DNA of 64,000 nucleotides from a virus. A model generated the notes under the pieces. That model was not told the origin of the DNA. It ran no database searches and was given only the letters and a program-made list of their open reading frames with translations. Shown in pieces: positions 22,869 to 64,000 of the stretch. Both the position numbers and the translations under genes were made by a program. Location of the stretch: IMG/VR virus record IMGVR_UViG_3300023112_000009, positions 32,001-96,000 of that record; one strand, 5' to 3'. Every line of letters begins with the position of its first letter. Within the stretch, counting starts at the first letter, position 1.

Positions 22869-23069
22869 TCATACCGTAAAACCCTGACGCTTTAGGTCGC
22901 GAGCAGCCATAATAAAAGCACGTTCACGCGAATATGCCTTCTTGCGGTCTTGGTGAATCCACTTCCACTGGAAGGCACCAGAGTCCTTGAGTGCTGGGAC
23001 GGCAACCCATCCAGCACGCTGTAGAACACGACGCTGTTCGTCGCGATGTTGTTTGTTGTTATCCATCAT
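22869..23069 (-). CDS. hypothetical protein
   Basis: 66 aa, coupled to the exonuclease gene. Confidence 0.5.
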   Translation of the reverse strand: MMDNNKQHRDEQRRVLQRAGWVAVPALKDSGAFQWKWIHQDRKKAYSRERAFIMAARDLKRQGFTV

Positions 23070-50391: not shown

Positions 50392-50589
50392 CAGTGTGGC
50401 GAAACGCCTTACTATGCTCAAAATTCCATCAGTGTCAGTTCTCCCCTTACTGTATCCGGGGAGGCAGGGATGAAGCCTGCCACTTATGTCCCCTCTGGGG
50501 AACCCCGAATGGGGTGACTTCTCCGCTCAAGGCGGCTACTCGGGTTGGGCGAAGTCACTACTCCCAACGCGGTAACAGAGTATACCCTG

Positions 50590-50889
50590 TTATTCTAGAA
50601 AGTCAAGCAAAGGATCCGAAATCTTATGCCCTTCCTGAAGTAAATTGTAATGGCCAGTGCAAAAGTTCTTGCCGTCAAGCAAAAAAGACGCTTCTTGTTT
50701 GCACCTGATATGGAAGCATTCCACAGGTTTTTCCAGCATTTGCGTTAAATGATCTCGCAATCGCTCGGCCTCTTCTCTTTCGAGCATACGATAGACGTAA
50801 TCGGCATCATCCGACTGAATTTCTATCCTAAGCTCTAAACGATTCTTATGCCAATCGTTTTGGACGGTGATCGTTTCTTGTAAGTACAT
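50590..50889 (-). CDS. hypothetical protein
   Basis: about 100 aa with a C-terminal C..C...C.H cluster. Confidence 0.5.
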   Translation of the reverse strand: MYLQETITVQNDWHKNRLELRIEIQSDDADYVYRMLEREEAERLRDHLTQMLEKPVECFHIRCKQEASFLLDGKNFCTGHYNLLQEGHKISDPLLDFLE

Positions 50890-51140
50890 GCCCAATCATA
50901 CCCTTAGGATCTAACCCTGTCAACATGTTTCTAATAGTTTCTTATACTCTATGTTATTCTTTATTTTCAAGCATCTTCTGGGGTTGGCCGTAAGGGCAAC
51001 CTTATATAGTACAGAGAACGCTTGGTTTTTCTGACTTTCCGAGATTTATTTAGATTCTATTTGACTTTCCAGGACTTAGAGCTATACTCTCCATGTTCGA
51101 TCAATGAAACGCCCCAACGGGCACAACCAAACACAAGACT

Positions 51141-51395
51141 ATGACCACCACGAAAAAGACCACGAAAAAGAATTCCAAGCCCGTTGCCACCACTATCAAG
51201 CGAGGCCGGGGCCGTCCCGCTAGCTTCCCCGCTGACGTGGCAACCCGTGCGATGCTCTCCACGATCCCCGTTGACAGCATCACCCAATTGCACGAACTCA
51301 AGACGAAATGGGGTGTCAACCTCAATCAAGCCCTGGCCCGCGTGCTACAACGGGCACACAAGGACACTTTCCGCTCCCGCTCGAAAAAGAGCTAA
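51141..51395 (+). CDS. basic DNA-binding protein with AT-hook-like motif
   Basis: KRGRGRPASF; promoter TTGACT-N16-TATACT at 51061-51088. Confidence 0.65.
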   Translation: MTTTKKTTKKNSKPVATTIKRGRGRPASFPADVATRAMLSTIPVDSITQLHELKTKWGVNLNQALARVLQRAHKDTFRSRSKKS

Positions 51396-51527
51396 GCCCA
51401 CAGGAACAGGCCACCCAATCGGGTGGCTTTTTTCTTTTCTCCCGATTCTGTTTGCATTCCTCCCAATTGTGGGTATACTGTTTGTGAATCGAGGGAACGC
51501 CCTCACAACCCTAACCAACACAAAGCC

Positions 51528-52595
51528 ATGAGCACTGATATCACAGGATTTTTCAACGCCCGCACCGATACGGATCAAGCGGCCAAAAGCATCTTCTTGG
51601 GTGTCGAGGGTGAAACCTCAGACCGCATCATTTCCGATCTTCCCACGTTTTTGGAGACTGCCGGGAGAGACTACGGCATCCTTCGGAAGCCCGCACTGGT
51701 TCGCGATCCCTTCGGTGGGGTTGACGCCCAAGGGAACGTCTGTGAGGCGATTCGCGAGGTGGACAATCAATATCACCTCTCCCGCACGAGTGACGGGCGA
51801 GTCGTGAGCCCGCACACTGTCACGAAACAGTACGCCCCTCTCACTTTGATGGACGTGGCAACCGAAATCAAGCCCTGGCTTGACGCGGGTTGGGTGACTC
51901 CCGATGCCGTTTTCAGCGGCAAAAACGAAAGTCTCGAATTGCTCTGTCTCAGGATGGATGCAAACGGTATGCTTCCCAACGGGGAGCAATGGCAACACTA
52001 CATTATCTTGCGTCTTCCGCACGCTGCGGGCGGCAAGTGCAAGGGTCAAGTGGTGAATTTCCGTCCCCAGTGTTCCAACGTGTACGCTGCAATCGGACGT
52101 GGAAACGAGTTCACGATCTCTCACAGGATTTCGAGCAAGATGGACGACGCGGAACGTCAAGCCGCAATGCTCGCCCGTGTCAAGATGGCTAAGAACGCCT
52201 GGAAGACCGCACAGGATCACATTGAGGTTCTGGCCCGCAAGGTCAACGCATGGAGCGGGAAAGCTCTCACGGTGACTCAGGCTGTCAACCTCACGAACAC
52301 CCTTCTGGGGATCAAGTCTCTTGACGACGCTAGCGGTGTCGCTAAGAACAAACAGGAAGCGATCCTAAACGGGTTCGATCTTCCGGAGTTCGGAACGCAC
52401 GGGGCCACCCTTTACGATTGGGTGAACGCTGTCACGTTCTACACGTCAAGCCCTAACTCACCCGTAGTGGCGAAATCTACGGTCAACCCGATTGATCGTA
52501 TGATCCGCAACGTGGATCCCCAGGGTACGGGGTTCAAGATGGAAGACGCGGCCCAAAAGCTTGCGGCCCGATTCCTCGGGGGTGACTTCCAGTAA
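51528..52595 (+). CDS. DUF932-like phage/plasmid protein
   Basis: overall pattern RTSDG..V...Y, RPQCSN, SH, GATLYDWVNAVTFY; own promoter. Confidence 0.6.
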   Translation: MSTDITGFFNARTDTDQAAKSIFLGVEGETSDRIISDLPTFLETAGRDYGILRKPALVRDPFGGVDAQGNVCEAIREVDNQYHLSRTSDGRVVSPHTVTKQYAPLTLMDVATEIKPWLDAGWVTPDAVFSGKNESLELLCLRMDANGMLPNGEQWQHYIILRLPHAAGGKCKGQVVNFRPQCSNVYAAIGRGNEFTISHRISSKMDDAERQAAMLARVKMAKNAWKTAQDHIEVLARKVNAWSGKALTVTQAVNLTNTLLGIKSLDDASGVAKNKQEAILNGFDLPEFGTHGATLYDWVNAVTFYTSSPNSPVVAKSTVNPIDRMIRNVDPQGTGFKMEDAAQKLAARFLGGDFQ

Positions 52596-52600
52596 ATAAC

Positions 52601-52642
52601 CTAGGGGCCAGGGTTGACAAGCCCTGGCCCCTATGCTATACT
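52601..52642 (+). promoter_or_regulatory. hairpin overlapping a promoter
   Basis: TAGGGGCCAGGGTT-GACA-AGCCCTGGCCCCTA with TTGACA at the apex and TATACT downstream. Confidence 0.6.
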
Positions 52643-52650
52643 GTATTCAC

Positions 52651-52872
52651 ATGGGAAGACATACCATTGGGGACCGACGCGGTTCCGTTCGGGGGGCTCC
52701 CCCCGACGTTTACATGGGGTTTGCATCGGCTGACGATGGGGACTCGGAAGCGATGGACGAAGCCATCACTTTGTTTGGCCGGTTTGTATTGTATGCTGTC
52801 GGCTCAATTGTTCTTGCTACAATCGCGGTAATCTTTTCGGCTGTCGGGTGCATTCCTGATATTTCGGATTGA
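52651..52872 (+). CDS. small membrane protein
   Basis: C-terminal TM segment; ATG shortly after TATACT. Confidence 0.5.
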   Translation: MGRHTIGDRRGSVRGAPPDVYMGFASADDGDSEAMDEAITLFGRFVLYAVGSIVLATIAVIFSAVGCIPDISD

Positions 52873-52951
52873 TCTTTTTTCAGGGAGTCGCTTGACAAAG
52901 CGGCTCCCTGAGGTATACTGTCAGTGTTCGAGAGGACATGAAAACTCATAT

Positions 52952-53144
52952 GGGGCGGTAGCTCAGTCTGGCCAGAGCGGGGGGATAATCTCCCTCGATC
53001 AAAGGGTCTTAGCTAAGGATGTTTAGGGTAGCTCCCGAAGGTGTCCACGGCAGCAAAATAGTAGCCTATTCTGTTAGATCTAATGATGTTGCTAAATACT
53101 AGTACGTGCAATTTGTCGCAGGTTCGAATCCTGCCCGCCTCACC
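52952..53144 (+). ncRNA. tRNA-shaped RNA with a ~115-nt insertion
   Basis: GGGGCGG/CCGCCTC acceptor, GCTC/GAGC D stem, GCAGG-TTCGAAT-CCTGC T arm; promoter TTGACA-N16-TATACT at 52892-52919. Confidence 0.7.
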
Positions 53145-53337
53145 TTTTTCCCAGTTTTCACTTGACAGCCTGTAAGGCGTTTTCAGCCCGCGAGGAATAT
53201 GCCCGCGTGTCTATACTACGTCCGATTGTAAAAAGGTCGGGAGAACGGCTTAGAGAGCGTCTGAGAGAAAATCGCCCTCTTGAAAAAAGAAAAGGGTTAT
53301 CTACTTGCTTTCTGTTCTTTCGAGGGTATACTCTGGC

Positions 53338-53970
53338 ATGACGATCAAAGCACTAGAACAAGCCATCGGCGGGCTTTCCAATCCCTCCAAAATGCCGGGA
53401 TGGTCCTATGGGATCCCGGCTTCCGCGTGCAAGATCGGGGCCATCCTTCGCAAGATCAAGCGTAGCGTGTGCTCCAAGTGTTACGCTTTCAAGGGTATGT
53501 ATGTTTTCCCGGTTGTGAAGGAAGCACAAGCCCGTAGGCTTGCCATTCTCACGGGGGATCTTGAAACGTGGCAAGGGGATATGATCCAATTGCTTTCTTT
53601 CAAGTATCGCAAGAAAACGGGGGACGATAGGGTATTTCGCTGGCATGACGCGGGGGATATCCAATCGGAGGATCATTTTCAAGCGATTGTGAATATCGCT
53701 CTTGCCCTTCCCGATATCCAATTCTGGATTCCCACAAAAGAGTATGACCTGATTCGCCAGCACGCCCACAAGGCCCCTGCTAACCTCGTGGTGAGGGTTT
53801 CGGCCCCGATGCTAGGGGATACCCTTCCCATGATCCCCGGCACGGTAGGGAGCACGGTAGGGACCGGCAAGGGCTTTGTCTGTGGAGCGTACACTCGGGA
53901 AGGCAAGTGTGGACCCTGCCGAGCGTGTTGGGATAAATCGGTGGAATGGGTTGACTATCCCCAGCACTAG
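53338..53970 (+). CDS. phage Gp88-like protein
   Basis: LSNPSKMPG.S..IPA..C, C..CYA.KG.Y, FRWHDAGD, W.PT, C..CRACW. Confidence 0.75.
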   Translation: MTIKALEQAIGGLSNPSKMPGWSYGIPASACKIGAILRKIKRSVCSKCYAFKGMYVFPVVKEAQARRLAILTGDLETWQGDMIQLLSFKYRKKTGDDRVFRWHDAGDIQSEDHFQAIVNIALALPDIQFWIPTKEYDLIRQHAHKAPANLVVRVSAPMLGDTLPMIPGTVGSTVGTGKGFVCGAYTREGKCGPCRACWDKSVEWVDYPQH

Positions 53971-54328
53971 GGTATACTAGAGTGTCGCTTAGGAAGTGGC
54001 CTCGCTGGACTCGCAAGAGAATGGTCAGCGTCGGGGGCTCCGATCAAGGGGAAACGGAGAAGCGACTATGAATGAGTGAGGCCCGGTGTCAAAACCGGGT
54101 CTCTTCTCTTAGACCTCCTGTAAGCTCGCTCACGGCCACCGGCTCAAATCCGCGTGTCTATACTACCTTGTTTTGGACTCGTGCCCGCCTAGGGGCCTTG
54201 TAGGCCGCACAATGGCTTATCTTATTTCTAGCAAAATCTCCTTGCCTTCCTGTGTTTTGACCGTATAATGTACCCATGAACGCGGACGATCAATACGACT
54301 GGTGGGAAAGCAAACCCAAGGAAAAACA

Positions 54329-54640
54329 ATGAATCAAGTCATCGAATGGATTTGGCAACGGCCCGCACGGGCTTTCAAGGTCTACTACAAGGGCAGCCGC
54401 TCCAATGCGATCACAGAGAAGTGTATCGAGTGTGCCTGCACGCTCAAGGAGGCCAAGGAGTGTGAGATCTCCGATTGTGCCCTATGGTGCTTCCGTCCCG
54501 GTGCTACCAAGGGAGAGGTTCCCTCGTTCGTACCGCCTCAGGACGAGCTACAAGCCTTGGCAGACGCTAAGGTTCCCGATGCTGTCCGCGAGCACGCTCG
54601 CAAGATGGGCAACGCACGGAAGGAAGCTAGCGAGGAGTGA
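54329..54640 (+). CDS. hypothetical protein
   Basis: AI..KC.EC...C...DC.LW.FRP. Confidence 0.65.
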   Translation: MNQVIEWIWQRPARAFKVYYKGSRSNAITEKCIECACTLKEAKECEISDCALWCFRPGATKGEVPSFVPPQDELQALADAKVPDAVREHARKMGNARKEASEE

Positions 54641-54693
54641 GGTTTCTCCTAATCCTGCTTGACTTCTACCCATTTCTAGGGTATTATCTAAAC

Positions 54694-54852
54694 ATGAAGA
54701 GAAGGAAGAAAAAGAGAAAGCCCAAGGCGGCTGAACAAGGACAACGGGGGGCAGGAGCTATGGCCAACGCTACCCGTGGTAGGGCACGACGATTCACTGA
54801 CAAGCCCAAAGCGGCTAACAAGACAGCCTGTAGGGGCAAGGTAGAACTATGA
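54694..54852 (+). CDS. small basic protein
   Basis: MKRRKKKRKPK...ANKTACRG. Confidence 0.5.
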   Translation: MKRRKKKRKPKAAEQGQRGAGAMANATRGRARRFTDKPKAANKTACRGKVEL

Positions 54853-55013
54853 GCACGGACGAAATGAATGCGATCCTAGGCCCGTGTCCTATTTGCAAAA
54901 AGGTCAAGTGGTGGTATAATGACTTGCCGCTTAGGGCCTTCTGCTGGGGATCACCAGACGACGAACACAAAGAGGTGTCCAGGGTGGCACCAACACAACG
55001 CAAGTACGCATGA
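54849..55013 (+). CDS. small hypothetical protein
   Basis: ATGA-coupled; CPIC motif. Confidence 0.45.
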   Translation: MSTDEMNAILGPCPICKKVKWWYNDLPLRAFCWGSPDDEHKEVSRVAPTQRKYA

Positions 55014-55183
55014 AAGAACGAATCGAAGCTTTCTTGGCAGCCCTAGCAGCCGCGTCCTACTACGATCCTAGCTCGGATAGCTCAGAAGTATTTCAAGGTA
55101 TGTTCATCGAGCCCGATGGGGATTACATTGATAGACAAGAGTTGGAAGCATTAGTGAAAGAACATTTGACTTCCACCGATTAG
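55010..55183 (+). CDS. small acidic protein
   Basis: ATGA-coupled; MKERIEAFLAAL... Confidence 0.45.
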   Translation: MKERIEAFLAALAAASYYDPSSDSSEVFQGMFIEPDGDYIDRQELEALVKEHLTSTD

Positions 55184-55199
55184 GTGTTATACTGTAACC

Positions 55200-55430
55200 A
55201 TGAGCGAACAAATCACAATCACAGAGAAGGTCCGCATTGGACTGGACGAACTGATCGCAGACTACAAAGCCTGTTGGTCATGGCAACACGAAAGCTTCTA
55301 TTCCTTCCTGAGTGAGAAGGTGGCAGAAAAACTGGATCGTGAACTGGACAACTTCCAGGTTATGTGCTACTCTGTAGTAGGTCACGAACACGACGCCGTT
55401 ATCTTTGAAGTCGAGAGGTACGAAGAATGA
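55200..55430 (+). CDS. hypothetical protein
   Basis: ATG 6 nt after TATACT. Confidence 0.6.
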   Translation: MSEQITITEKVRIGLDELIADYKACWSWQHESFYSFLSEKVAEKLDRELDNFQVMCYSVVGHEHDAVIFEVERYEE

Positions 55431-55627
55431 CACTACGCTGCAAAACCTGCAACTCAAGCGACGTTCGGCAAGAGTGGACGGCCATGATTGACCCGAACGA
55501 CGACGATTGCATGAAGGACTTTGACCCCACCACGTTGGAGTACAATGAGTTTGAGTACTGTCTTGACTGCGAAGACACGACGGACACCTACGACGACACG
55601 ATGAAAGACTTCAACTATTACGCTTGA
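55427..55627 (+). CDS. acidic zinc-ribbon protein
   Basis: CKTC...CLDC, D/E-rich. Confidence 0.6.
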   Translation: MTLRCKTCNSSDVRQEWTAMIDPNDDDCMKDFDPTTLEYNEFEYCLDCEDTTDTYDDTMKDFNYYA

Positions 55628-55656
55628 CATTCTCTGTTTTCAAGCTATACTAGAGC

Positions 55657-55911
55657 ATGAAGAAAGAAAAACTAGCTCTCATCAAGGTCATGGACGAGTG
55701 TTTGTGTTCGCCTGATGGAATGAGCGACAACGCTTACACGGTAGCATACGCTGCACTCGAAGACGATGATGAGATCGTGGATATCTTGGAAGCCGTAGAG
55801 GCGACCGATGGACGGTTCTACTTTCCCGAGTGTCATGTGGGCATTGAGAACATGCTCCGCGTAGACGTTGGGAGCCGACACGAACAGGACGAGCAGCCGT
55901 CCGAGGGATAA
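55657..55911 (+). CDS. acidic hypothetical protein
   Basis: ATG 5 nt after TATACT. Confidence 0.6.
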   Translation: MKKEKLALIKVMDECLCSPDGMSDNAYTVAYAALEDDDEIVDILEAVEATDGRFYFPECHVGIENMLRVDVGSRHEQDEQPSEG

Positions 55912-56345
55912 GAACCCAGAACAGGCTGAAACGGTATCTCTCACGCTGGGGAGCGGTAAGGGGGTGCCTTGAAAGGCGGAAGACTAAGCATGGGGTCGTT
56001 TGAACCGCTAATACCTCCCGCGATGGATCGCCCCCGATACGCACGGTCGAGAGGTATACTGCCACAATTGTAGAAGGCTGAGAAAACCCTTTACCTCTTT
56101 TTAGAAGTGCGGGAAAAGACGTTACTGTAAAAATAGGCTTCTGCCATATTGGCATAGGGAAAACTTTTCCACGTCAATTTGGCAGGCTCCTGTAAGCTCG
56201 CCTACGGCCACGGGCAAAAACGCAGGTAGTATAGACACGCGGGTTTGCCGCCATGCCCGTACAGGGCCGCACAGGACGTGCGAATTTCCAGCAACAAAAT
56301 CCGAAATCCGTTTGCTTCTCCCGATTGTGGAGGTATAATGAAGGC

Positions 56346-56891
56346 ATGAAAGCAATCAATCAAGCCACCCTGATCGACACGATCAACGCCGTCAAGGGTG
56401 CCACGTTCGCCACGATCATCACCGAAACCGATGCCCGCCTCAAGAAAACGGGCAACCCCTTCGGTCCCGTCCGCAAGATTTCCCGCGTCAACGTTTGCCT
56501 CGGTTTCCAGTATGAGGCCGCTGTAAATCGTCAACGCATCCGTGAGGATTCCGAGGCCGATTTCGAGGCCCGTCCGCGTCAATGGGGCGAGCGTATCTCG
56601 GCCATGCTGATCGGGCACAAGGGACGGACCTATCTCGAAACCAAGGTCCAGCGTGCTCTCGAAACGTCCTACATCGACGCCACGGGCAAGGAACTCTCCA
56701 AGGAAGATGTTCGCCCCTTCCTTCCTGCACGCTCCAAGAGCCGTCAAGAGGTCGCGGACGAGGTTATCGTCCGAGACTACGCTCTCGATTCGATCCGCTC
56801 GCTGGCCTTCGGTGGCGAAACGTACCTCTTGACTCAAGCAACGGCACCCGTGGCCGTCAAGATCGCCCGCACTCAACCCGTCACGAAATAA
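56346..56891 (+). CDS. phage hypothetical protein (cassette gene)
   Basis: ATG 7 nt after TATAAT; followed by the repeat hairpin. Confidence 0.7.
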   Translation: MKAINQATLIDTINAVKGATFATIITETDARLKKTGNPFGPVRKISRVNVCLGFQYEAAVNRQRIREDSEADFEARPRQWGERISAMLIGHKGRTYLETKVQRALETSYIDATGKELSKEDVRPFLPARSKSRQEVADEVIVRDYALDSIRSLAFGGETYLLTQATAPVAVKIARTQPVTK

Positions 56892-56900
56892 AGCCGCCAG

Positions 56901-56920
56901 GAGGCCCCGCAAGGGGCCTC
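56901..56920 (+). terminator. GC-rich GNRA hairpin closing cassettes (8 copies)
   Basis: GAGGCCCC-GCAA-GGGGCCTC at 56901, 57533, 58083, 58887, 59391, 59910, 63493, variant at 62520; weak U-tract, so a terminator role is unproven. Confidence 0.6.
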
Positions 56921-57063
56921 TCTTGCGTTGTGCCGCGTCCTAGAAAATCCAAGGTAGTATAGACACGCGGGCGGGCGGGCGGTGGCCGTAGCGGGCAGCA
57001 CAGGAGCCTGAAATAAATAAGGTTTAGAGTTTGCATTTTCGAGTGGAGAGGGTATACTGTGGC

Positions 57064-57258
57064 ATGAGTAAAGCACACACATGGAATGGCGAGCCGCCCC
57101 GGCACATCGAATACGCTCGGAACCTCGCCACCCGCTTGGGGAGAGCTAACATCAGCACCCGTATCGGGATGCCGATCAAGAGGATCCCCGTCACTGAAAC
57201 CATTTCGGAGAAAACCAAACGCATTCTTGCCGAGTGCGATGCAATTCTCTGCAAGTAA
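57064..57258 (+). CDS. 64-aa cassette protein (paralog of 58247-58441)
   Basis: PRHIE.A.NLATRLG..ISTRIG..TETISEKT...LAECDAILCK. Confidence 0.7.
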   Translation: MSKAHTWNGEPPRHIEYARNLATRLGRANISTRIGMPIKRIPVTETISEKTKRILAECDAILCK

Positions 57259-57335
57259 ATCAGAAAAACAGTTTGCCTTTTCCACTGGGGAGGGTATACT
57301 GTAATTGTTCGAGAGAAAACAAACAAAGGAATGCA

Positions 57336-57524
57336 ATGGAATTCAAAGAATGGATGAAAGCGATGAACCGCCACATTTCCGCCAAAATCTGCTTGGATGC
57401 TGGCGACATGCCCGATCTGTGCTTTCGGGATATGTTCGAGGATGAAATGACGCCGAAAGAAGCGGCGGAAAACTCGCTCGAAATCTGGGCAGAACAAGGG
57501 GACGTTCCCTACGATCTGATCTAA
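57336..57524 (+). CDS. small cassette protein
   Basis: AAGGA SD; F.EWM..........DMPD..FRD.FEDEMTP.EAA. Confidence 0.65.
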   Translation: MEFKEWMKAMNRHISAKICLDAGDMPDLCFRDMFEDEMTPKEAAENSLEIWAEQGDVPYDLI

Positions 57525-57728
57525 CGCACTAGGAGGCCCCGCAAGGGGCCTCGCTTGCGTTGTGCCGAGACCTAGAAAATCCCGCGTGGCTTAGCCACAC
57601 GGGGTCAAGGTCCGTGCCCGTACAGGGCCGCACAGGAGGCCAAAAAAGAATTGGCTTTCTACTTGCATTTTCGAGCGGGGAGGGTATACTGTAGCAGATT
57701 CGAGGCCACTAACCAACGGAGTAACCGA

Positions 57729-58070
57729 ATGAATCAGAACATCATCAGCACCGATCAAGCCGCCAACCTCATTCACCAGAGCAACGGGACCGTGTTCACG
57801 GTCGGGTTCTACAAAAAGGGGAAAAAGAACGGGGAGGGCAAAAACGACTTCCGCGAAATGCGTGCTCGCCTCGGCAGCACGGTTCGCAAGGGGCTTGCGG
57901 GTGGCCCGCCCGCCTACAACCCTTCCGAGCACGGGCTTATCTGGGCCTACCTTATGGCGGGGGATGAGAACCGCGAAGAGGCCCGCAACCGCCGTAGCAT
58001 CCCGGTGAGCGGCATCGTGGAATTGAACATCGGTGGCGAGTCCTATCGGGTCGCCGGATCGCCCCACTAA
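57729..58070 (+). CDS. SH3/WYL-like fold phage protein
   Basis: GGAG SD; VFTVGFYKK...REM.ARLG...RRSIPV..I..L. Confidence 0.6.
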   Translation: MNQNIISTDQAANLIHQSNGTVFTVGFYKKGKKNGEGKNDFREMRARLGSTVRKGLAGGPPAYNPSEHGLIWAYLMAGDENREEARNRRSIPVSGIVELNIGGESYRVAGSPH

Positions 58071-58246
58071 AAAACACCGCAGGAGGCCCCGCAAGGGGCC
58101 TCTCTTGCGTTGTGCCGCGTCCTACAAAATCGTGCGTAGTATAGACACGCGGGCGAGCCGCCCGTGCCCGCACAGGGCAGCACAGGAGCCTGAAATAAAT
58201 AAGGTTTAGCGTTTGCTTTTCTAGCTCACGAGGGTATACTGTCAAC

Positions 58247-58441
58247 ATGAAAACAAAGAACATCACGGAGTACAAGGCTCCCCGTCACATCGAATTCGCA
58301 CAGAACCTCGCCACCCGTTTGGGCAAGGTGGGAATCAGCACCCGCATCGGAAGGCCGGTCAAGGTGGTGATCGTGACCGAAACCATTTCGGAGAAAACCC
58401 GCCGCGTGCTCGCTGAGTGCGATGCAATTCTCTGCAAGTAA
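58247..58441 (+). CDS. 64-aa cassette protein (paralog of 57064-57258)
   Basis: high identity to 57064-57258; ATG 6 nt after TATACT. Confidence 0.7.
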   Translation: MKTKNITEYKAPRHIEFAQNLATRLGKVGISTRIGRPVKVVIVTETISEKTRRVLAECDAILCK

Positions 58442-58521
58442 AATCCAGAAAACAGTTGCCCTTCCCGCTGGGGAGGGTATACTGTAACGGTTCGAGAGAC
58501 AGCAAACCAACGGAGACAACG

Positions 58522-58773
58522 ATGGAACACGACGACGGCCCGGAAGAGTTGTGGGATGATGCGGAAGAGTTCGAGCGTGACGAGCTTGCACGGTTCTTAG
58601 CGGCCTATCCCGATGGCTGGACATGTCAGGATTGCTCCTGCGAATACCTGCCGGGAGAATGCCATCCCGTCATGCCAGCCGAAGACCTAGACGGTTGGGT
58701 TGCTGGTGACGGCACGGTTTGTCCGCTGGGCCACGGATGCAAAGAGGACGAGGCCGAGGATCTGCCCTTCTGA
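58522..58773 (+). CDS. acidic Cys-rich protein ending EDEAEDLPF
   Basis: GGAG SD; CQDC, CH, CP.GH.C. Confidence 0.65.
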   Translation: MEHDDGPEELWDDAEEFERDELARFLAAYPDGWTCQDCSCEYLPGECHPVMPAEDLDGWVAGDGTVCPLGHGCKEDEAEDLPF

Positions 58774-58880
58774 TGGACGAGATAGAATTCTGCAAGAGGC
58801 AGGCGAAAGCCTGTCTCTTGTTTCTAGTGCTCTTGCCCGTGGGCGTTGTTGTCGCCGTGCTTTGGGTTTACGGTTTTTAG
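58773..58880 (+). CDS. 35-aa membrane peptide, copy 1
   Basis: TGATG coupling; MDEIEFCKRQAKACLLFLVLLPVGVVVAVLWVYGF. Confidence 0.6.
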   Translation: MDEIEFCKRQAKACLLFLVLLPVGVVVAVLWVYGF

Positions 58881-59049
58881 CCACAGGAGGCCCCGCAAGG
58901 GGCCTCGCTTGCGTTGTGCCGCGTCCTACAAAATCGTGCGTAGTATAGACACGCGGACAAGGGGCCGGTGGCCGTACACGCCAGCACAGGAGGCCAAAAG
59001 AAAAACCATTTGCTATTTGCTTTTTCAAGGGGTTGTGGTATACTGTGGC

Positions 59050-59277
59050 ATGGATGAACGACAAGAGCTTGAAGACGAATACAACGCCCGCTATGGCGAT
59101 CCTCGCCACTGCCCGCATCACCCGATGGTGCAGACCTCTTCGGGTTGCGGCAACTTCGATGCCCCTTGTGGGCTTTGCGAGTCCGAGATGGACGAGTACG
59201 ATACGGTGGATCCCGATTGGGTTCCCGAGCCGTGGGTTGCTCCCGAAGAGGACGAGGCCGAGGATCTGCCCTTCTGA
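59050..59277 (+). CDS. acidic Cys/His protein ending EDEAEDLPF
   Basis: ATG 5 nt after TATACT; CPHH...C..C. Confidence 0.65.
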   Translation: MDERQELEDEYNARYGDPRHCPHHPMVQTSSGCGNFDAPCGLCESEMDEYDTVDPDWVPEPWVAPEEDEAEDLPF

Positions 59278-59384
59278 TGGACGAGATAGAATTCTGCAAG
59301 AGGCAGGCGAAAGCCTGTCTCTTGTTTCTAGTGCTCTTGCCCGTGGGCGTTGTTGTCGCCGTGCTTTGGGTTTACGGTTTTTAG
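59277..59384 (+). CDS. 35-aa membrane peptide, copy 2
   Basis: identical to 58773-58880. Confidence 0.6.
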   Translation: MDEIEFCKRQAKACLLFLVLLPVGVVVAVLWVYGF

Positions 59385-59553
59385 CCACAGGAGGCCCCGC
59401 AAGGGGCCTCTCTTCCGTTCTCCCGCGTTCTACAAAATCGTGCGTAGTATAGACACGCGGGCGGGCGGGCCGTGCCCGTAGCGGGCCGCACAGGAGGTCA
59501 AAAAGATTTGGTTTTCCATTTGCTTTTCTAGCTTCCTAGGGTATAATGTAAAC

Positions 59554-59682
59554 ATGAACAACAAGGAAGACAAGCGGATCGGCAAGAAGGCACTGGGCCA
59601 CACTCCCCACTGCAAGTGGGGCCGCAAGAAAGCCAACAAGAAAAGCCGCAGTGTTGCGAAAAAGGAGTTGCACAATGTATAA
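59554..59682 (+). CDS. small basic peptide (42 aa)
   Basis: ATG 6 nt after TATAAT; K/R-rich. Confidence 0.5.
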   Translation: MNNKEDKRIGKKALGHTPHCKWGRKKANKKSRSVAKKELHNV

Positions 59683-59902
59683 CGACGATTGGATGGATCC
59701 CGAGCCCGAGGAAGAGGTTGAGCCCATCAACCCCGAAGGGGACAAGGGACCGAACTACCTCCCCGACCCCGACCTTGACGGTCCCTACAAGGGTCCACCC
59801 GTGGGCACCTATGCCTACACCGCTTGGCTGATGGCTCAATCGGGCATGGATCCTGACGAGGCCGACGCCTGGAAGGACGAGATGAAAGAGCGAGATTTTT
59901 AG
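59675..59902 (+). CDS. small acidic protein
   Basis: AAGGAG SD; D/E/P-rich. Confidence 0.6.
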   Translation: MYNDDWMDPEPEEEVEPINPEGDKGPNYLPDPDLDGPYKGPPVGTYAYTAWLMAQSGMDPDEADAWKDEMKERDF

Positions 59903-60112
59903 TCAACAGGAGGCCCCGCAAGGGGCCTCTTCTGCTTTGTGTCGCATCCTACAAAATCGCAGGTAGCTTAGCCACGCACGATTGAGGCCACGCCCGCACG
60001 CGGCAGCACAGGCAGCCACAGGGCAAACAAAAGAAATCACAAATACCATTTGCTTTTTCCAGCGGTTGTGGTATACTCTCGGTGGATTCAACAACAGCAA
60101 CGGAGACAAGAC

Positions 60113-60292
60113 ATGCAAATCACCATCACCACGATTGACGACTCGGACGACGACTGCCGCAGGACCACCTACGAGACCCGCGTGGACGGCAAGCTCTACA
60201 CGCTCGCCGCGTGCTCCCTTCGAGGGGAAGGCGTTGAGGAACGTGCTCGCGAGTTGTTCGGTGACGACGTGGAAATCGTTTGGGAATTCTAA
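60113..60292 (+). CDS. small protein (paralog of 61627-61833)
   Basis: GGAG SD; DDDCRR, VDGK.Y, ERARELFG.DVE. Confidence 0.65.
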   Translation: MQITITTIDDSDDDCRRTTYETRVDGKLYTLAACSLRGEGVEERARELFGDDVEIVWEF

Positions 60293-60366
60293 AGAAAGGA
60301 CTTGCATCTGCCCGATACAGTGGTATACTGTTAGTGAGTCAAGGAAACAACACAACGGAGACAACA

Positions 60367-60582
60367 ATGAACGAGCAAAACGAAATCGGCGGCGACCTTC
60401 AAGACGAGTACACCGCCATTCAAGAGGCCGAGCTTCTCGAAGAGAGTCCGATCATGGACCTCACCGATCAAGACTTGGAGGGCTGGTATCAGGAATGGCT
60501 CTCCGAGCAGGACGATCCCGCGAGCATCGACCCGGACTTTTACGATCCCCGCGTGGACTTCGGCCCCGATCCCCGCGACTAG
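60367..60582 (+). CDS. very acidic small protein
   Basis: GGAG SD; about one third D/E with only two R and no K. Confidence 0.65.
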   Translation: MNEQNEIGGDLQDEYTAIQEAELLEESPIMDLTDQDLEGWYQEWLSEQDDPASIDPDFYDPRVDFGPDPRD

Positions 60583-60793
60583 CACACTTGTTGCTTCTCT
60601 CCTATGCTCCCTGGCGATTTAGGTCGTCAGGGGGCCTTTCCATGTGCCTAGGAGGCCGCAGGACGAGGGCTGCAAAAATCAAGGTAGCTTAGCCACGCAG
60701 GGTGAAGGCCCGTGCCCGTACAGGGCAGCACAGGAGCCCAAAAGAAATCACAAATGGAATTTGCTTTCTAGCCAATTGGGAGTATTATTGGGC

Positions 60794-61270
60794 ATGAGAA
60801 ACAAGCAACAGATTCAGGGCCAAGCGAGGGCCATCCTGAACAAACTCGCCCCGCAGTACCCCGTGCTGGCAAACCTGCCGATTCGCATTTCGACCCGTAT
60901 GACACGGGCCGCTGGTCAGGCTTCCTGGCGAGGTGGTATCCCTGTCGAGATCACCCTTTCGCTCCCTTTTTTCGCAGATGAGGCGAACGACCTACATCGT
61001 ACCGTAACGCATGAGGCGGCTCATATCGTCGCTGGCCACGCTGCTGGTCATGGCCCCACGTGGAAGGCTGTACACCGTAGCATGGGCGGCAAAGGCGACC
61101 GCTGCCACACTATGAGCCTTGCGGAAGGTTTCAAGCATACTCCCCGCAAGCGTGCCCCGCGTGTCGAGGTGACTTGCCCCAAGTGTAGCCAACCGATGCT
61201 GCTGGGGCCTACGCAAGCCAAGAAGGCACAACGGGGCTATCGCTACACGCACGCACGCTGCCCGAGATAG
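60794..61270 (+). CDS. SprT-like zinc metalloprotease
   Basis: RMTRAAGQA, HEAAH, GHGPTWK, CH, C-terminal CPKC. Confidence 0.85.
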   Translation: MRNKQQIQGQARAILNKLAPQYPVLANLPIRISTRMTRAAGQASWRGGIPVEITLSLPFFADEANDLHRTVTHEAAHIVAGHAAGHGPTWKAVHRSMGGKGDRCHTMSLAEGFKHTPRKRAPRVEVTCPKCSQPMLLGPTQAKKAQRGYRYTHARCPR

Positions 61271-61329
61271 GGTAAAGAAAAATCCCTTCTCCCGCTTGAC
61301 TTCAAGCGGGGGGAGGGTATACTGCAAGC

Positions 61330-61539
61330 ATGAAAGAACAAACAACATTCGTCCTTCGCAACACGGGCACCTCGCGATTCGTCAAGACGAGCCCCCACGA
61401 GTTCCTTGACGAGAACTTTGTCGAGGGGTGGGATAACCTCGCGGCTCGTGGTGCTCTGACCTTCGGGACGCACGAGGCGGCTCTGATCGCCAAGGATGCT
61501 GACCCCGATGGCTGCTCTCTCGCTGTCGAGGAAATCTGA
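61330..61539 (+). CDS. small hypothetical protein
   Basis: ATG 6 nt after TATACT. Confidence 0.6.
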   Translation: MKEQTTFVLRNTGTSRFVKTSPHEFLDENFVEGWDNLAARGALTFGTHEAALIAKDADPDGCSLAVEEI

Positions 61540-61626
61540 TAAACAAAACCCTTTTCCCGCTTGACATTCGGCGGGGATGGGGTATACTGTCAGCGTTCAA
61601 GGAAACAACAGCCAAGGAAACAAGCC

Positions 61627-61833
61627 ATGAAACTTCAAATCGAATACAACGACGCCTGCCGCAGGACCACCTACGAGTCTGACGACGACTGCCGCCGCGT
61701 GGACTACTGCGTGACCGTGGACGGCAAGGAATACTGCCTTTCCGGTTCTGCTCTCGGCAACGAGCACAACGACCGCGAAGCCACCGAGCGTGCTCGCGAG
61801 TTGTTCGGCCCCGACGTTGAGCTGATCTTCTAA
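61627..61833 (+). CDS. small protein (paralog of 60113-60292)
   Basis: AAGGA SD; shared CRRTTYE, DDDCRR, ERARELFG. Confidence 0.65.
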   Translation: MKLQIEYNDACRRTTYESDDDCRRVDYCVTVDGKEYCLSGSALGNEHNDREATERARELFGPDVELIF

Positions 61834-62121
61834 GAGGCTGCCAGAATGGCGGGGGCCACGGCCCCCGCTGAGCCCCCTGCCTGCCCCCACACGGGGAGCG
61901 GCCCCGACCCCCTGTGGCTTAGCCACGCGGGCACGGCACTCGTGCCGGTAGAGCGTATCCCAGGCCCCTTGTGATGCCTGCTATGCGTTACGCTTTTTCG
62001 GTTTCTCGCTTGACTTCTGCCAATCGCATGGTATACTGTGGCATGAAGTTGAGCAAAGAAGATATGGAGTTCGCCCACGACACTATCCACGGTGCCCGCG
62101 AATACGCCGAATCCGCCTAAC

Positions 62122-62292
62122 ATGTACTCACTGACCTACAACGGAGAGCAACTGGCCGAGTGGACTATCCCACGCGGTTGGCTGCCCTCCTTTGGTACGC
62201 TGCTGGCCGTGAAATATCACGGTAGGCTGACGCTATTTCGTGCGATGGGAATTCAAGAAAGGGAAATTCTGCTTGACATCTACCAATCGTAG
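62122..62292 (+). CDS. small hypothetical protein
   Basis: follows a 25-codon leaderless ORF at 62043-62120. Confidence 0.45.
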   Translation: MYSLTYNGEQLAEWTIPRGWLPSFGTLLAVKYHGRLTLFRAMGIQEREILLDIYQS

Positions 62293-62306
62293 GGTATACT
62301 GTGGGC

Positions 62307-62504
62307 ATGAAGCAACAAGAAACAACCGAGTTCGCACAAGCCGTCGCCGGGAACTGTGACCGTTGGGTGCCCGCCTGTGGTGGCCACGAGCAACCGTTCA
62401 CCCACAACGGCACTCGCTATCTGTACTGCTTCAACCCAAACAAGCACGAGCACGGGTATATCAATCTGGACACCGATATTCTGGAGACCACGCTGCCCTT
62501 CTGA
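62307..62504 (+). CDS. small hypothetical protein ending LPF
   Basis: ATG 6 nt after TATACT; WVPACGG.E.PF...YLYC.N....H.Y..LDTD. Confidence 0.65.
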   Translation: MKQQETTEFAQAVAGNCDRWVPACGGHEQPFTHNGTRYLYCFNPNKHEHGYINLDTDILETTLPF

Positions 62505-62683
62505 ATCCGAGACCACGAGGAGGCCCCGAAAGGGGTCTCTCGTGCGTTGTGCCGCGTCCTACAAAATCGCACGTAGTATAGACACGTTGGCTTGCGGTTC
62601 GTGGCCACCACGGGCTGCACAGGAGGCCAAAAAGAATTACCATTTACAATTTGCTTTTTCCAGCGTGGAGGGTATACTCTAGC

Positions 62684-62830
62684 ATGGTTGAAGAAAACAA
62701 AGCACTGACGAAGGCGGGCTGGGTTCTGGTTCGCATCACTGACGCCCAAGGCTTGGTTGTCTTTTGTGAGACGGTCAGGGACGAGGACGCCGAAAGCATC
62801 ATCGCCAAGTTCCGCAACACAATTCGCTAA
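62684..62830 (+). CDS. small hypothetical protein (48 aa)
   Basis: ATG 5 nt after TATACT. Confidence 0.55.
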   Translation: MVEENKALTKAGWVLVRITDAQGLVVFCETVRDEDAESIIAKFRNTIR

Positions 62831-62870
62831 AACAACTGGACACGCCCCCGAAAGGGGGCTATACTCTGAC

Positions 62871-63053
62871 ATGCACATTCACGACCCCGACTGGACAGGC
62901 CCTATCTGTCGCAACTGTACCGCCCCCGTCAAGAGCCTGCACATGATGGCACAGCATCAAGAGGCTTGGAACAAAGCGAAAGCGAAAGATTCCGAAGCAA
63001 AGGAACCGCCGCACTTCTGCTCAAACCAGTGCGTCTACGACAAGTACATGTAA
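62871..63053 (+). CDS. small zinc-finger protein
   Basis: CRNC...FCSNQC; ATG 5 nt after TATACT. Confidence 0.6.
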   Translation: MHIHDPDWTGPICRNCTAPVKSLHMMAQHQEAWNKAKAKDSEAKEPPHFCSNQCVYDKYM

Positions 63054-63288
63054 AACAAGGCCCCTAGCTCTGCTGGATCACAACAAGAGAACCGGCTCTC
63101 TCTGTTCACTGATCGAAGCCGCTAGGGGCCTTTTCTACCCACCTGAGAGCCCGCGTGCCGAGCCCTACAAAATCGCAGGTAGCTTAGCCACGTTGGCTTG
63201 CAGCCGGTGGCCGCACACGCCCGCACAGGAGGCCAAAAGAAATCACAAATGGTATTTGCTTTTTCGAGCGTGGAGGGTATACTCTGAC

Positions 63289-63483
63289 ATGCAAGAACAA
63301 ACAAACCCCTTTGAAAAGGGAACTGACAAACACGCCCAATGGGAAGAGTTGGATTGTCACGAGTGCCGAGCCGCACTGAGTGATTCGATGTATCCCCGCC
63401 ATAGTGGCAGCCGCAACTGCAATAGTGGCAGTATCGCCTCTGGCGGCAACAGATCGCACTGCACTTGCGACACTTGTTTCTAA
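63289..63483 (+). CDS. small Cys/His-rich protein
   Basis: CHEC..P.H..S..C.SG.....HCTCDTCF; ATG 5 nt after TATACT. Confidence 0.65.
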   Translation: MQEQTNPFEKGTDKHAQWEELDCHECRAALSDSMYPRHSGSRNCNSGSIASGGNRSHCTCDTCF

Positions 63484-63655
63484 ACACCGCAGGAGGCCCC
63501 GCAAGGGGCCTCTTTTGCGTTGTGCCGAGAGCTACAAAATCGCAGGTAGTATAGACACGTTGGCAAGAGGTCGGTGGCCACCACGGGCCGCACAGGAGCT
63601 TTCTCTTTTTCTTATTTCAAGCTTGCATTCTTGTCAATTGAGGGTATACTCTGGC

Positions 63656-63763
63656 ATGGATACAACAAAAGAAAATCTCAAGGTCGGCCTCGGAATCCTC
63701 CTGCCCTTCTACGTGATCGCGGCGGCCTACTGCTTCGAATTGTTTATGCGATATTTCGCTTGA
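63656..63763 (+). CDS. 35-aa membrane peptide
   Basis: ATG 5 nt after TATACT; single TM segment. Confidence 0.55.
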   Translation: MDTTKENLKVGLGILLPFYVIAAAYCFELFMRYFA

Positions 63764-63826
63764 CATTTCGAGCGGAGAGGGTATACTCTCACTGTTCAAG
63801 AGCAACCGAAACCAACAGAAAGCAAC

Positions 63827-64000
63827 ATGGAACAAGTAAACGCAAGCGGGACCGGACTTCGAGGATACGTGGACGTGAGCTACAATCGACTCGTGGAAGT
63901 GTTCGGGGAGCCGCACTACCGCATGGGCGACAAGACCACCGTGGAGTGGTCCTTCGAGCACGAGGGTACGCGATTCACCCTGTACGACTACAAGTGGCAA
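63827..64000 (+). CDS. phage hypothetical protein (truncated by the window end)
   Basis: GT.L.GYV..SY..LVEVFGEP...DKT.VEW......FTLYDYK. Confidence 0.65.
   Translation, partial: MEQVNASGTGLRGYVDVSYNRLVEVFGEPHYRMGDKTTVEWSFEHEGTRFTLYDYKWQ

Follow-up and report, generated by a model that had tools for sequence, protein, structure and literature searches.

An array of about twenty early-gene cassettes in a marine phage: PeSL-like units that share a short palindrome, probably an operator

The DNA described here belongs to an uncultured marine phage record of 125,609 bases (estimated completeness, 69%); the window, that is, the whole stretch of 64,000 nucleotides that was analysed, comprises bases 32001-96000 of that record. 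The early genes of this phage are about twenty self-contained units, each consisting of promoter, gene and terminator, and each headed by the same short palindrome (Table 1). A search of the window with the pattern GTRGYWWAGMYAC recovers 14 places (19 strand matches), all of them between 53207 and 63558; shuffles of the window give an expectation of 0.06 places and a largest value of 2. Fourteen is also the number of copies that the first-pass annotation of this DNA had counted, and its account of the region as an array of self-contained units is supported, as are the perfect palindromes that it placed at 57586 and 61914 and the spacing that it put at about 370-1230 bp (367-1230 bp from centre to centre, computed from the coordinates from 56.2 kb on). 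The limits that it drew around the array hold for all 14 copies in the window but not for the array as a whole, which runs past the window's end: the entire record contains 20 copies, and the recommended scan for copies beyond the early array found none, all 20 lying within 14.6 kb (85.2-99.8 kb in record coordinates).

What lies between the modules is mostly anonymous. From 56898 to 63660, the space between neighbouring modules holds one to three small genes and, here and there, a stand-alone TTGAC(A/T)-16-TATACT promoter. No Pfam family was found for nine of the ten cargo proteins scanned, which the first-pass annotation took for putative host-takeover or anti-defence genes.

Table 1. Features of the early block (window coordinates)
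Feature	Position	Strand	Remarks
First early-block gene and its promoter	51061..51395	+	Consensus promoter TTGACT-16-TATACT, no module; 84-aa protein
Module 1	53165..53340	+	Allele-A core 53207-53219; promoter TTGCTT-16-TATACT; upstream of GP88-family gene 53338-53970
Module 2	54110..54275	+	Allele-A core 54154-54166; promoter TTGCCT-16-TATAAT; inverted copy of right arm on left side
Module 3	56190..56350	+	Core 56226-56238; inverted copy of right arm on left side; promoter TTGCTT-16-TATAAT, leaderless ATG
Eleven further modules	56898..63660	+	Cores at 56954, 57586, 58136, 58940, 59444, 59963, 60684, 61914, 62573, 63179 and 63546, each between GC-rich hairpin and promoter
Skipped two-cassette stretch	58188..59500		Both ends joined in contigs of three runs (three studies)
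SprT-like protein (cargo example)	60794..61270	+	A rare cargo gene with a Pfam assignment; also in relative G001

The module that parts one unit from the next is a composite of a GC-rich terminator hairpin, a palindrome of 13-15 bp (GTRGCTWAGCYAC, with a derived allele, GTAGTATAGACAC, referred to below as allele A), a GC-rich arm, an A-rich tract and a sigma70-type promoter, in that order. The alignments reproduce the arrangement originally proposed: on the left, a hairpin GAGGCCCC-GCAA-GGGGCCTC followed by TTGCGTTGTGCCG..CCTACAAAATC and then the core; on the right, an arm ending GCACAGGAG, an A/T tract, and TTGnnn-16-TATACT. The AT-rich tracts are of the type CAAAAAGATTTGGTTTTCCA or CAAAAGAAATCACAAAT and abut the -35 element. 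A hairpin common to all the modules, as first proposed, is too simple: the hairpin GAGGCCCC..GGGGCCTC/GGGGTCTC is present in 12 of the 20 copies, and most of the others have a different GC-rich hairpin. The 67 nt on the 5' side of the core fold at -12 kcal/mol or below in 45 of 46 modules (a count made with no shuffled control), and on the strength of that folding the stem-loop is a predicted terminator or attenuator; its sequence varies between phages.

The core is the constant element. In an alignment of 46 modules from three phages, where column identity averages 51%, columns G27, T28, A38 and C39 show little or no variation, and the palindrome is retained in all 56 copies read or aligned in five phage sequences as the arms around it drift. 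Allele A, which makes up 10 of the 20 copies in the record, is a poor palindrome and yet is itself invariant. (A technical note: the core matches the minus strand at 53207, 54154 and record position 96171. The notion that these are reversed modules was rejected; their flanks and downstream promoters point the same way as the others, and the asymmetry of the core is for that reason an unreliable mark of direction.) Every combination of half-site and centre base is found with the same flanks, and the allele-A core that precedes the GP88 gene has opposite orientations in this record and in a related short contig, L108. The palindrome thus appears to be usable in either orientation.

The promoters are equally conspicuous: between 50500 and 64000 of the window, 27 sigma70-like promoters are found, against 6.5 +/- 2.5 in shuffles. 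Strict matches number 28 on the + strand at 83.4-98.6 kb of the record and five on the other strand of the record in its entirety. In 19 of 20 modules a TTGnnn-16-TAnnnT promoter follows within 69-100 bp, and these module-linked promoters are mostly of the form TTGC[T/A]T-16-TATACT, a host-type sigma70 promoter. The start codon often lies only 5-6 bases past the -10 box, which suggests leaderless mRNA. The distance from the centre of the core to the -35 element falls into classes about 10 bp apart: among the 38 modules with a scored promoter, 13 are at 69-72 bp, 14 at 79-82 and eight at 90-93, with rarer instances at 99-100 (two modules) and 113 (one). Five of the seven modules of another related contig, L114, were read by hand and gave 81, 71, 71, 82 and 81. 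The copies are related by descent, and these figures therefore represent only about ten independent distance classes; the 10-bp steps could also reflect slippage of 10-11-base direct repeats in the arm, of which the extra CAGCCACAGG at 59.99 kb is an example, rather than selection.

The relatives of this phage permit a look at how the array changes. Two long ones, G001 and G002, have about 68% DNA identity with the record, and their arrays come after the same conserved early genes. In the relatives, too, the palindrome is confined to arrays of small-gene cassettes: 14 of 14 copies at 16.2-30.0 kb in G001, 12 of 12 at 14.0-23.4 kb in G002, and seven and three copies in the short contigs L114 and L108, respectively. 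Their hairpin and left-arm sequences differ from those of the record, and so, for the most part, does their cargo: of the 32 automatic gene calls from the third module (core at record position 88226) to the last, 14 (in nine families) have a relative in the G001 array and one has a relative in that of G002. This supports the original contention that the module is far better conserved than the genes that it separates. Cassette order is only partly kept, and L114 presents yet another order. G001 is collinear with the record at 64-73% DNA identity, and the blocks of DNA homology between them begin or end in modules or promoters.

Closer relatives tell the same story at finer grain. Contig L107, a strain 97-100% identical to the record over most of its 7.4 kb, carries at the module 2 promoter an extra unit of 384 bases that consists of a promoter -10 element, a leaderless gene and the next -35 element: on the left the two sequences cease to match inside the promoter, and on the right they match again from the next -10/ATG. 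Contigs from three of four runs compared appear to skip 1.3 kb (58188-59500) by joining one module to another, with both ends at the end of a module's GC-rich arm; the left side of this joint is 107 bases of module sequence alone. Most contig joints can be explained by paralogous modules that lie beyond the stretch compared; the exceptions are this joint and another, from 62606 to 60029, each of them in a short contig. The junctions thus fall at varied places in the module (promoter -10, arm end) and define no single crossover point. The comparison of cassette content and order that had been called for accordingly finds that relatives and strains differ, with breakpoints inside the repeated signals: the modules are the repeated homology at which promoter-gene units are gained, lost, duplicated and reordered.

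The reading that we favor, with a probability of roughly 0.6, is that these are regulatory cassettes resembling the PeSLs (promoter-early stem-loop cassettes) of T4-type phages (PMC2839356; PMC4122927), that they are shuffled by homologous recombination, and that the palindrome is probably the operator of a dimeric regulator. At each boundary the hairpin would terminate the upstream unit, and the A-rich tract and sigma70 promoter would open the next. Shuffling would most likely proceed by homologous recombination with no dedicated site-specific recombinase. The 13-15 bp palindrome would be a double-stranded DNA site whose regulator keeps to the same side of the helix with respect to the promoter, and the module-linked promoters would be controlled together, being silenced or activated once the first minutes of infection have passed. 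Some features fit less comfortably. An invariant yet poorly palindromic allele A is not easily explained by one symmetric dimer. The centre of the palindrome, moreover, precedes the start point by about 100-110 bp, a distance that is long for simple steric repression and counts against the operator reading.

What might bind the palindrome? The best candidate is the small 84-aa protein encoded by the first gene of the block, behind a promoter that has no module of its own. It is conserved in every relative whose sequence extends over this position, has only nine homologues among 5.8 billion clusters, and has no match in Pfam or PHROG. Its modelled monomer has an extended N-terminal part followed by two helices (mean pLDDT, 68), and the top of the Foldseek list consists mostly of ribbon-helix-helix (RHH) proteins (CopG, Arc, MatP, AmrZ, antitoxins), all with E > 2. 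Modelled as a homodimer it scores 0.56 (pLDDT, 73) against 0.00 for the best control, a mark that 20 of 30 solved homodimers and 1 of 23 single chains also attained; the separate runs agree on at least 98% of contacts, and the contacts 39-39, 38-40 and 41-37 are consistent with an antiparallel ribbon. The score may reflect likeness to solved RHH dimers. The protein is a candidate RHH-like binder of the palindrome, and its presumed DNA-contacting strand varies between phages that have the same core.

Other ways of accounting for the array have to be weighed, and they differ in what they take the palindrome to be. One is an integron-like platform, in which the palindrome is the site of a dedicated recombinase that moves cassettes as circles; the first-pass annotation had named integron cassette arrays as an analogue. 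Each cassette boundary does have a short palindrome, relatives do differ in cassette content, and the core allele has been swapped as a short patch between near-identical modules (record positions 91444 vs 97733). The recombinase that was to be looked for elsewhere in the genome is nevertheless not found: Phage_integrase (PF00589) is absent from all three records searched (this one, the 99% complete G001, and G002), with controls matching 14/14, and Resolvase is likewise absent from all three, with its controls matching. The observed junctions are in the promoter -10 element and the arm end, outside the core; every cassette has a promoter of its own, unlike integron cassettes; and no single-strand fold backed by covariation is seen. 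With no tyrosine or serine recombinase in the record and two relatives, with own promoters and with scattered junctions, this mechanism is very improbable, though a host-encoded or unrecognised recombinase might still supply it. Might the palindrome and arm be read by no protein at all, the repeat being mere homology for recombination, or the product of duplication and gene conversion? Paralogous cassettes and duplicated segments (258 nt at 93%, 245 nt at 78%) and the reassortment of module parts among the copies speak for that, the shared TTGC-type -35 boxes of the module-linked promoters would be explained by it, and gene conversion could also maintain the conservation of the repeat within one genome. 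Conversion within a genome is, however, unable to hold a sequence constant between genomes, and a 13-mer is common to five phage sequences whose core genomes are 64-73% identical where measured; it stays in place where the left arm and hairpin have been replaced between phages, and it is found only between hairpin and promoter, in distance classes of about 10 bp. Homology alone is for these reasons an unlikely account.

If the core is read, the reader need not be encoded by the phage: a host transcription factor, with no phage protein involved, would suit a symmetric site upstream of host-type promoters, and would be indifferent to the variation in the candidate's presumed DNA-contacting strand among phages with the same core. 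An exact and narrow search for the CGG-flanked perfect palindrome in 185,579 species genomes yielded 12 stretches (11 single matches in unrelated taxa and one phage-like cassette contig), hence no host regulon, which makes this distinctly unlikely. A second promoter, with core and arm recognised by a phage sigma factor or phage RNA polymerase for later transcription, finds encouragement in the two or three sigma70-family proteins that each phage encodes and in the TATAG/TATACT-like letters of the allele-A core. In the three long records, however, the motif is confined to the early array, and a phage sigma factor would be expected to act on middle and late genes in other parts of the genome; the core is also found in both orientations, and no T7-type polymerase was matched by a search whose controls gave no match either. 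We give it little credence. Least probable of all is a structured RNA (small RNA, processing site or antitermination element). The GC-rich arm has hairpin potential, perfect-palindrome copies can form a 7-bp stem, and some cores come up in a simple scan as terminator-like sites on the minus strand. RNAalifold nonetheless finds no consensus pairs in 46 copies; two specified hairpins have a covariation score of 0.066, against 0.098 in shuffles; 29 of the 46 copies lack the core pair 29-37, and in the arm helix 43% of cells are paired; tRNA is the only Rfam family found in the window; and the A/T tract beside the core, A-rich in this phage, is T-rich in G001, G002 and L114.

How do PeSL-like cassettes with a probable operator compare with systems already known? 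Integrons carry promoterless cassettes expressed from one common promoter, with the IntI tyrosine recombinase encoded alongside and a folded attC site. The likeness is in the row of small gene cassettes parted by a repeated imperfect palindrome; the array described here differs in having no integrase, a promoter for each cassette, no conserved single-strand fold, and scattered junctions. The host-takeover module of the Bacillus phage SPO1 is a cluster of numerous small early genes, rich in terminators and in strong promoters of the host type, and in that respect this early block is much like it; we know of no description of a shared palindrome at every SPO1 unit. The operator of CopG and the matS site of MatP are 13-bp palindromes read by ribbon-helix-helix dimers, and here likewise a symmetric site of about 13 bp has a small dimeric beta-ribbon DNA binder as its candidate reader, with the differences that no sequence relation is demonstrated and that the modelled fold match is non-significant. 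The stoperators of the Cluster A mycobacteriophages provide a precedent for one short site, in many copies in short intergenic spaces, read by one phage regulator (as would be the case here), although stoperators, as described, are asymmetric, are bound by a monomeric repressor and are distributed genome-wide in temperate phages (PMC9283540). The site in this phage is instead symmetric and confined to the early array, and the searches for Phage_integrase and Resolvase in three records found no lysogeny genes.

The closest likeness is to the PeSLs. In the published descriptions on which we draw, these combine a sigma70 promoter, an AT-rich tract and a stem-loop, are dense in a plastic, ORFan region, and are places of insertion and deletion (PMC2839356). 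So it is here: a repeated composite, at least about 100 bp long, with a sigma70-like early promoter, a terminator stem-loop and an AT-rich tract upstream of the -35 element, is dense in one plastic, ORFan-rich block (14.6 kb), close relatives differ by insertion, deletion or replacement at the elements (L107, the 58188-59500 joint, the ends of the G001 blocks), and recombination between copies is the proposed engine in both. The first-pass verdict that the module matches neither attC nor PeSL consequently holds for attC, there being no attC-type single-strand fold or covariation, and was too strong for PeSL, with which these features are shared. What is additional is a conserved block of about 60 bp (the palindrome of 13-15 bp together with about 45 bp of GC-rich arm), which is interposed between stem-loop and AT tract and is conserved between phages; the PeSLs of those descriptions are without such an operator-like core at distances from the promoter that step by about 10 bp. 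The phage itself is not of the T4 type: it has sigma factors of its own and a DnaE-type polymerase, which matches phrog_405 and whose best named relative (31% identity) is annotated as DNA polymerase III alpha. One can therefore think of the array as PeSL-like in its working, in a phage that does not belong to the group for which PeSLs were defined.

The early genes of this phage are laid out as an array of small cassettes, promoter-gene-terminator units that meet at boundary modules, and each module is centered on a core of pattern GTRGYWWAGMYAC. The core is found at 14 places in the window, the number that the first-pass annotation had counted, where shuffled sequence is expected to yield 0.06. 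The whole record holds 20 copies, and their span (Table) carries the array ~3.8 kb past the window's end. The order of elements originally described within the module is also seen in the aligned copies. In the alignment of 46 modules, no stretch other than the core is nearly invariant (core consensus CGTRGCTWAGCYACG); on the core's right lie a short CGGG, a GC-rich arm that ends in GYACAG(G) and reads as two direct repeats of ~11 bases each, an A-rich tract, and then the promoter. Each phage has its own sequence for the terminator hairpin and for the left arm, and the A/T tract adjoining the core is A-rich in the source phage and T-rich in three relatives (G001, G002 and L114, below). Scanning the sequence collection with left arm and core together gave no matches, since the source phage alone has this left arm.

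Two long relatives carry the array: G001 (154,408 bp, 99% complete), found by a gapped pattern scan and collinear with the source record at 64-73% DNA identity, and G002 (169,742 bp), found when the GP88-family gene was used as a protein query. In both, the array is preceded by conserved early genes for a small basic protein, a DUF932-like protein, a 73-aa protein and GP88. Two short contigs of related phages add 3 core copies (L108) and 7 (L114, a 5.5-kb fragment of a cassette array). The latter is binned in an Alphaproteobacteria metagenome-assembled genome, a label that may reflect faulty binning or, at most as a weak lead, point to the host. An exact scan of 185,579 species genomes for a host regulon bearing the perfect palindrome returned only 11 scattered single matches besides a phage-like contig. 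Other, unrelated phages with a GP88-family gene (L064, L098, L088) have their own repeated 12-mers in the examined stretch; for example, GGTTTTACCAAA occurs 12 times in a 328-kb contig, and words of the GGGCGGGACCCACCC type occur 10 times in L098.

Coordinates of features in the source record and of core copies in its long relatives
Feature	Coordinates	Strand	Remarks
sigma70_r2 match 1	genome 51.8 kb (window 19816-19959)	-	above Pfam cut-off
sigma70_r2 matches 2 and 3	genome 7.6 kb; 109.6 kb	+ (both)	above Pfam cut-off
HNH homing-type endonuclease	window 49903-50391		phrog_1872, E 8e-27; directly upstream of early block
84-aa basic protein	window 51141-51395		first gene of early block; consensus promoter without module
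Stand-alone promoters followed by a conserved leader	window 52912-52934; 57293-57315; 58476-58498; 61581-61603; 63780-63802		
tRNA-like stretch	window 52950-53145		just 5' of first module
Core copies in the window (14)	window 53.2-63.6 kb		all copies
Core copies in the whole record (20)	genome 85.2-99.8 kb		all copies
258-nt duplicate	window 58742-58999; 59246-59503		93% identity
Two tandem ~30-bp units	genome ~99.85-99.93 kb (contig L011, 5850-5930)		TTTTTCCGTACCGTTTCCGCACACGGAAA and TTTTTTCTGTACCATTTCCGCACGCGAAAA; after last module, which lacks a promoter
G001 core copies (14)	G001 16.2-30.0 kb		all copies
G002 core copies (12)	G002 14.0-23.4 kb		all copies

The source record (125,609 bp; 69% complete according to CheckV) encodes a DnaE-type DNA polymerase, ribonucleotide reductase, an rIIA-like protein (phrog_612), nicotinamide phosphoribosyltransferase, large terminase and portal. 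The window holds 15 tRNAs, and tRNAs are all that Rfam recognized there. Megablast against deposited phages gave no match, and the polymerase's best protein relatives are <35% identical; near-identical DNA is found in seawater, sediment and hydrothermal-vent metagenome runs, and the listed samples with close strains come from 23 studies. Three σ70-family proteins are encoded in open frames of ~190-260 aa (two or three in each relative), and the phage's own σ factors probably redirect the host polymerase for later genes. The tRNA-like stretch that comes just before the array, with a good T-arm and acceptor end (GGTTCGAATCCTGCCCGCCTCACC), was called by neither ARAGORN nor Rfam; its version in the near-identical strain contig L107 differs (5' part GGGGTGGTAGCTCAGTTTGG...), and perhaps it is a tRNA gene that has decayed or been interrupted.

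The core is used symmetrically: half-sites GTAGCT and GTGGCT occur with a central T or A in every combination, within the same flanks. Upstream of the GP88 gene the core is flipped between the source record and L108 and its flanks are not; the three minus-strand core matches in the source record are therefore not reversed modules. The 20 source copies divide equally into two alleles. Allele B is a palindrome; allele A (GTAGTATAGACAC) is a poor one and is itself invariant. The modules at genome 91444 and 97733 are nearly identical except for the allele that they carry. Past the last module and the two tandem units that follow it come palindromes of the TGCCA..TGGCA type, and motifs resembling these also occur near window 56150 and in G001.

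What kind of signal is the core? The 67 nt upstream of it fold at or below -12 kcal/mol in 45 of 46 modules from three phages, a count taken with no shuffled control. An RNA structure comprising core or module finds no favor in the alignment: RNAalifold returns 0 consensus pairs for the 46 copies, covariation of two specified hairpins (0.066) lies below the shuffled mean (0.098), the central core-stem pair is unpaired in 29 of the 46 copies, and the arm helix is paired in 43% of cells. A late promoter is disfavored by the motif's absence from the rest of the three long records, where the phage σ factors must act, and a ParB/KorB-type regulator by the absence of PF02195 from all three. A T7-type RNA polymerase also went unmatched in these records, a result that says little, the controls having likewise failed to match.

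Window positions 50500-64000 have 27 σ70-type promoters on the + strand (6.5 +/- 2.5 expected), and strict matches number 28 on the + strand at genome 83.4-98.6 kb versus 5 on the other strand of the whole record. In many units the start codon comes 5-6 bases past the -10 box, which suggests that the mRNAs are leaderless. Module-linked promoters of the source record have TTGC-type -35 boxes in 17 of 19 cases, and 12 of 20 stand-alone promoters inside cassettes have TTGAC; the split may denote two regulatory classes or shared descent alone. Five stand-alone promoters (Table) are followed, up to the start codon, by a conserved ~45-nt leader (GGTATACTGTAAnnGTTCGAGAGA...ACGGAG), a second repeated signal separate from the palindrome module; the leader also borders a duplicated segment of 245 nt (78% identity).

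Spacing between core center and -35 box falls into classes. A promoter was scored for 38 modules, and the spacing is 69-72 bp in 13 of them, 79-82 bp in 14, 90-93 bp in 8, 99-100 bp in 2 and 113 bp in one. (A technical note: the nearer, second-listed promoter was used for two source-record and two G001 modules; five G002 modules with weak promoter scores were omitted, as were four modules with no nearby promoter call, one in the source record, two in G001 and one in G002.) The commonest spacing is 71 in the source phage, 80 in G001 and 92 in G002; five of the seven L114 modules, read by hand, give 81, 71, 71, 82 and 81. With steps of ~10 bp the core stays on the same helical face as seen from the promoter, as a protein bound there that touches or loops to the transcription complex would require. 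The same steps could also come from slippage of the arm repeats, which are themselves 10-11 bases long, and the module copies are not independent of each other. A hand calculation on the ten class means, made post hoc with the period fixed at 10.4, puts the mean resultant length at ~0.77 and the Rayleigh p at roughly 0.003.

The genes between the modules are nearly all ORFans: 9 of 10 scanned cargo proteins have no Pfam family, the exceptions to the rule being an SprT-like and a GP88-family protein, and Pfam and PHROGs mostly gave no match to the early proteins. From the third module, whose core is at genome 88226, to the last one, automatic gene calling finds 32 genes; G001's array has relatives of 14 of them (9 families) and G002's a relative of one (BLASTP, E <= 1e-3). 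Comparing all ORFs more loosely yields three further links to G002, but is noisy because frames running through modules cluster together. Families common to the G001 and source arrays are collinear only in part, several being duplicated in the source record, and the blocks of DNA homology between the two arrays start or end in modules or promoters. The order differs again in L114, which keeps the G001 pair 22954-23476 as a single unit and has it on the opposite side of the zinc-ribbon gene (G001 22651).

Turnover is also seen at close range. L107, 97-100% identical to the source record over most of its length, carries an extra 384-base unit. The left junction falls in the promoter at genome 86242, where identity extends across the -35 box and the spacer and is lost at the -10 box; on the right identity returns at the -10/ATG of a second promoter, 3' of the inserted leaderless gene. 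Further left are a 610-base indel (genome 80137-80747) and a segment with RHH-like (ribbon-helix-helix), DUF932-like and 73-aa genes (L107 3134-5230 versus genome 82921-85036) that, at 78% identity between flanks of 97-100%, looks like a swapped module. In contigs of three out of four runs, which belong to three studies, window position 58188 is linked to 59500 across four letters of other sequence. The joint has the end of a module arm on either side and leaves out two cassettes. The left side consists of module sequence only, so that the upstream neighbor at this joint is not proven. Paralogous modules or cassettes beyond the window end, at genome 96-100 kb, account for other contig joints (57572-60672, 59527-60367, 58943-62612, 61931-62320, 62476-57532 and 64000-61834) and for the loose ends at 62603. 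Window 63252-64000, uncovered in runs X9 and X16, was left out of the evidence. The 258-nt duplicate holds the C-terminal end (..EDEAEDLPF) that two genes, different elsewhere, have in common, together with a 35-aa hydrophobic ORF, the hairpin and most of a module; it shows mosaicism finer than whole cassettes.

What might read the palindrome? A candidate is the 84-aa product of the first early gene, which is present in every relative that covers its place, has 9 homologues among 5.8 billion protein clusters, and matches nothing in Pfam or PHROGs. Its monomer model (mean pLDDT 68) has an extended N-part and two helices; the best Foldseek matches are RHH proteins (MatP, CopG, Arc, AmrZ and RHH antitoxins), none of them significant (all E > 2). 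Modeled as a homodimer, the protein scores 0.56 (best of three controls, 0.00), a mark that 20 of 30 solved homodimers reach, as does 1 of 23 single chains; at least 98% of contacts agree between runs (pLDDT 73), and the modeled contacts 39-39, 38-40 and 41-37 fit an antiparallel ribbon. Likeness to solved RHH dimers may itself account for this score. That this RHH-like protein reads the palindrome is what we infer. The regulon can be sketched as follows: 1) a small RHH protein would be made from the first, module-free early promoter; 2) it would bind a palindromic operator approximately seven to eleven helical turns upstream of some twenty early promoters, and so time their expression; 3) the source phage's two operator alleles (10 copies apiece) would distinguish two kinds of unit; 4) the operator-promoter block would serve also as homology for cassette exchange, and each newly acquired gene would therefore arrive already in the timing circuit. 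Taken jointly, all of this is a tentative proposal, to which we assign a probability of about 0.3. A palindrome-marked early array with an RHH protein was not found described in the literature searched.

How are cassettes exchanged? The three long records yielded neither a tyrosine nor a serine recombinase (controls were positive), and exchange junctions are spread over several positions in the module. Together these fit homologous recombination between repeated regulatory sequences rather than an integron-type reaction. Recombination of that kind is what has been proposed, in the part of the description available, for the promoter-early stem-loop elements (PeSLs) of T4-type phages (PMC2839356).

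If the small early protein does bind the palindrome, the array is a simple system in which to ask how large lytic phages time dozens of ORFan genes, how they plug new genes into that timing, and why arrays of this kind are so quick to turn over. The cargo genes vary between strains, and that makes them natural candidates for host-specific functions. The modules had been set apart from PeSLs; wherever the features given in the available part of the PeSL description (PMC2839356) are testable, the modules have them, apart from membership of the T4 group, and they work like PeSLs. They differ in belonging to a source phage outside that group, and in an extra palindrome and arm, kept across phages in ~10-bp distance classes, which that part of the description does not contain. 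The modules are thus PeSL-like signals with an added operator-like palindrome. The PeSL idea, that repeated promoter-terminator signals serve as joints for the shuffling of small early genes, reaches well beyond the T4 group, and acquires here a new layer: a symmetric, phased site, conserved across phages, that resembles an operator.
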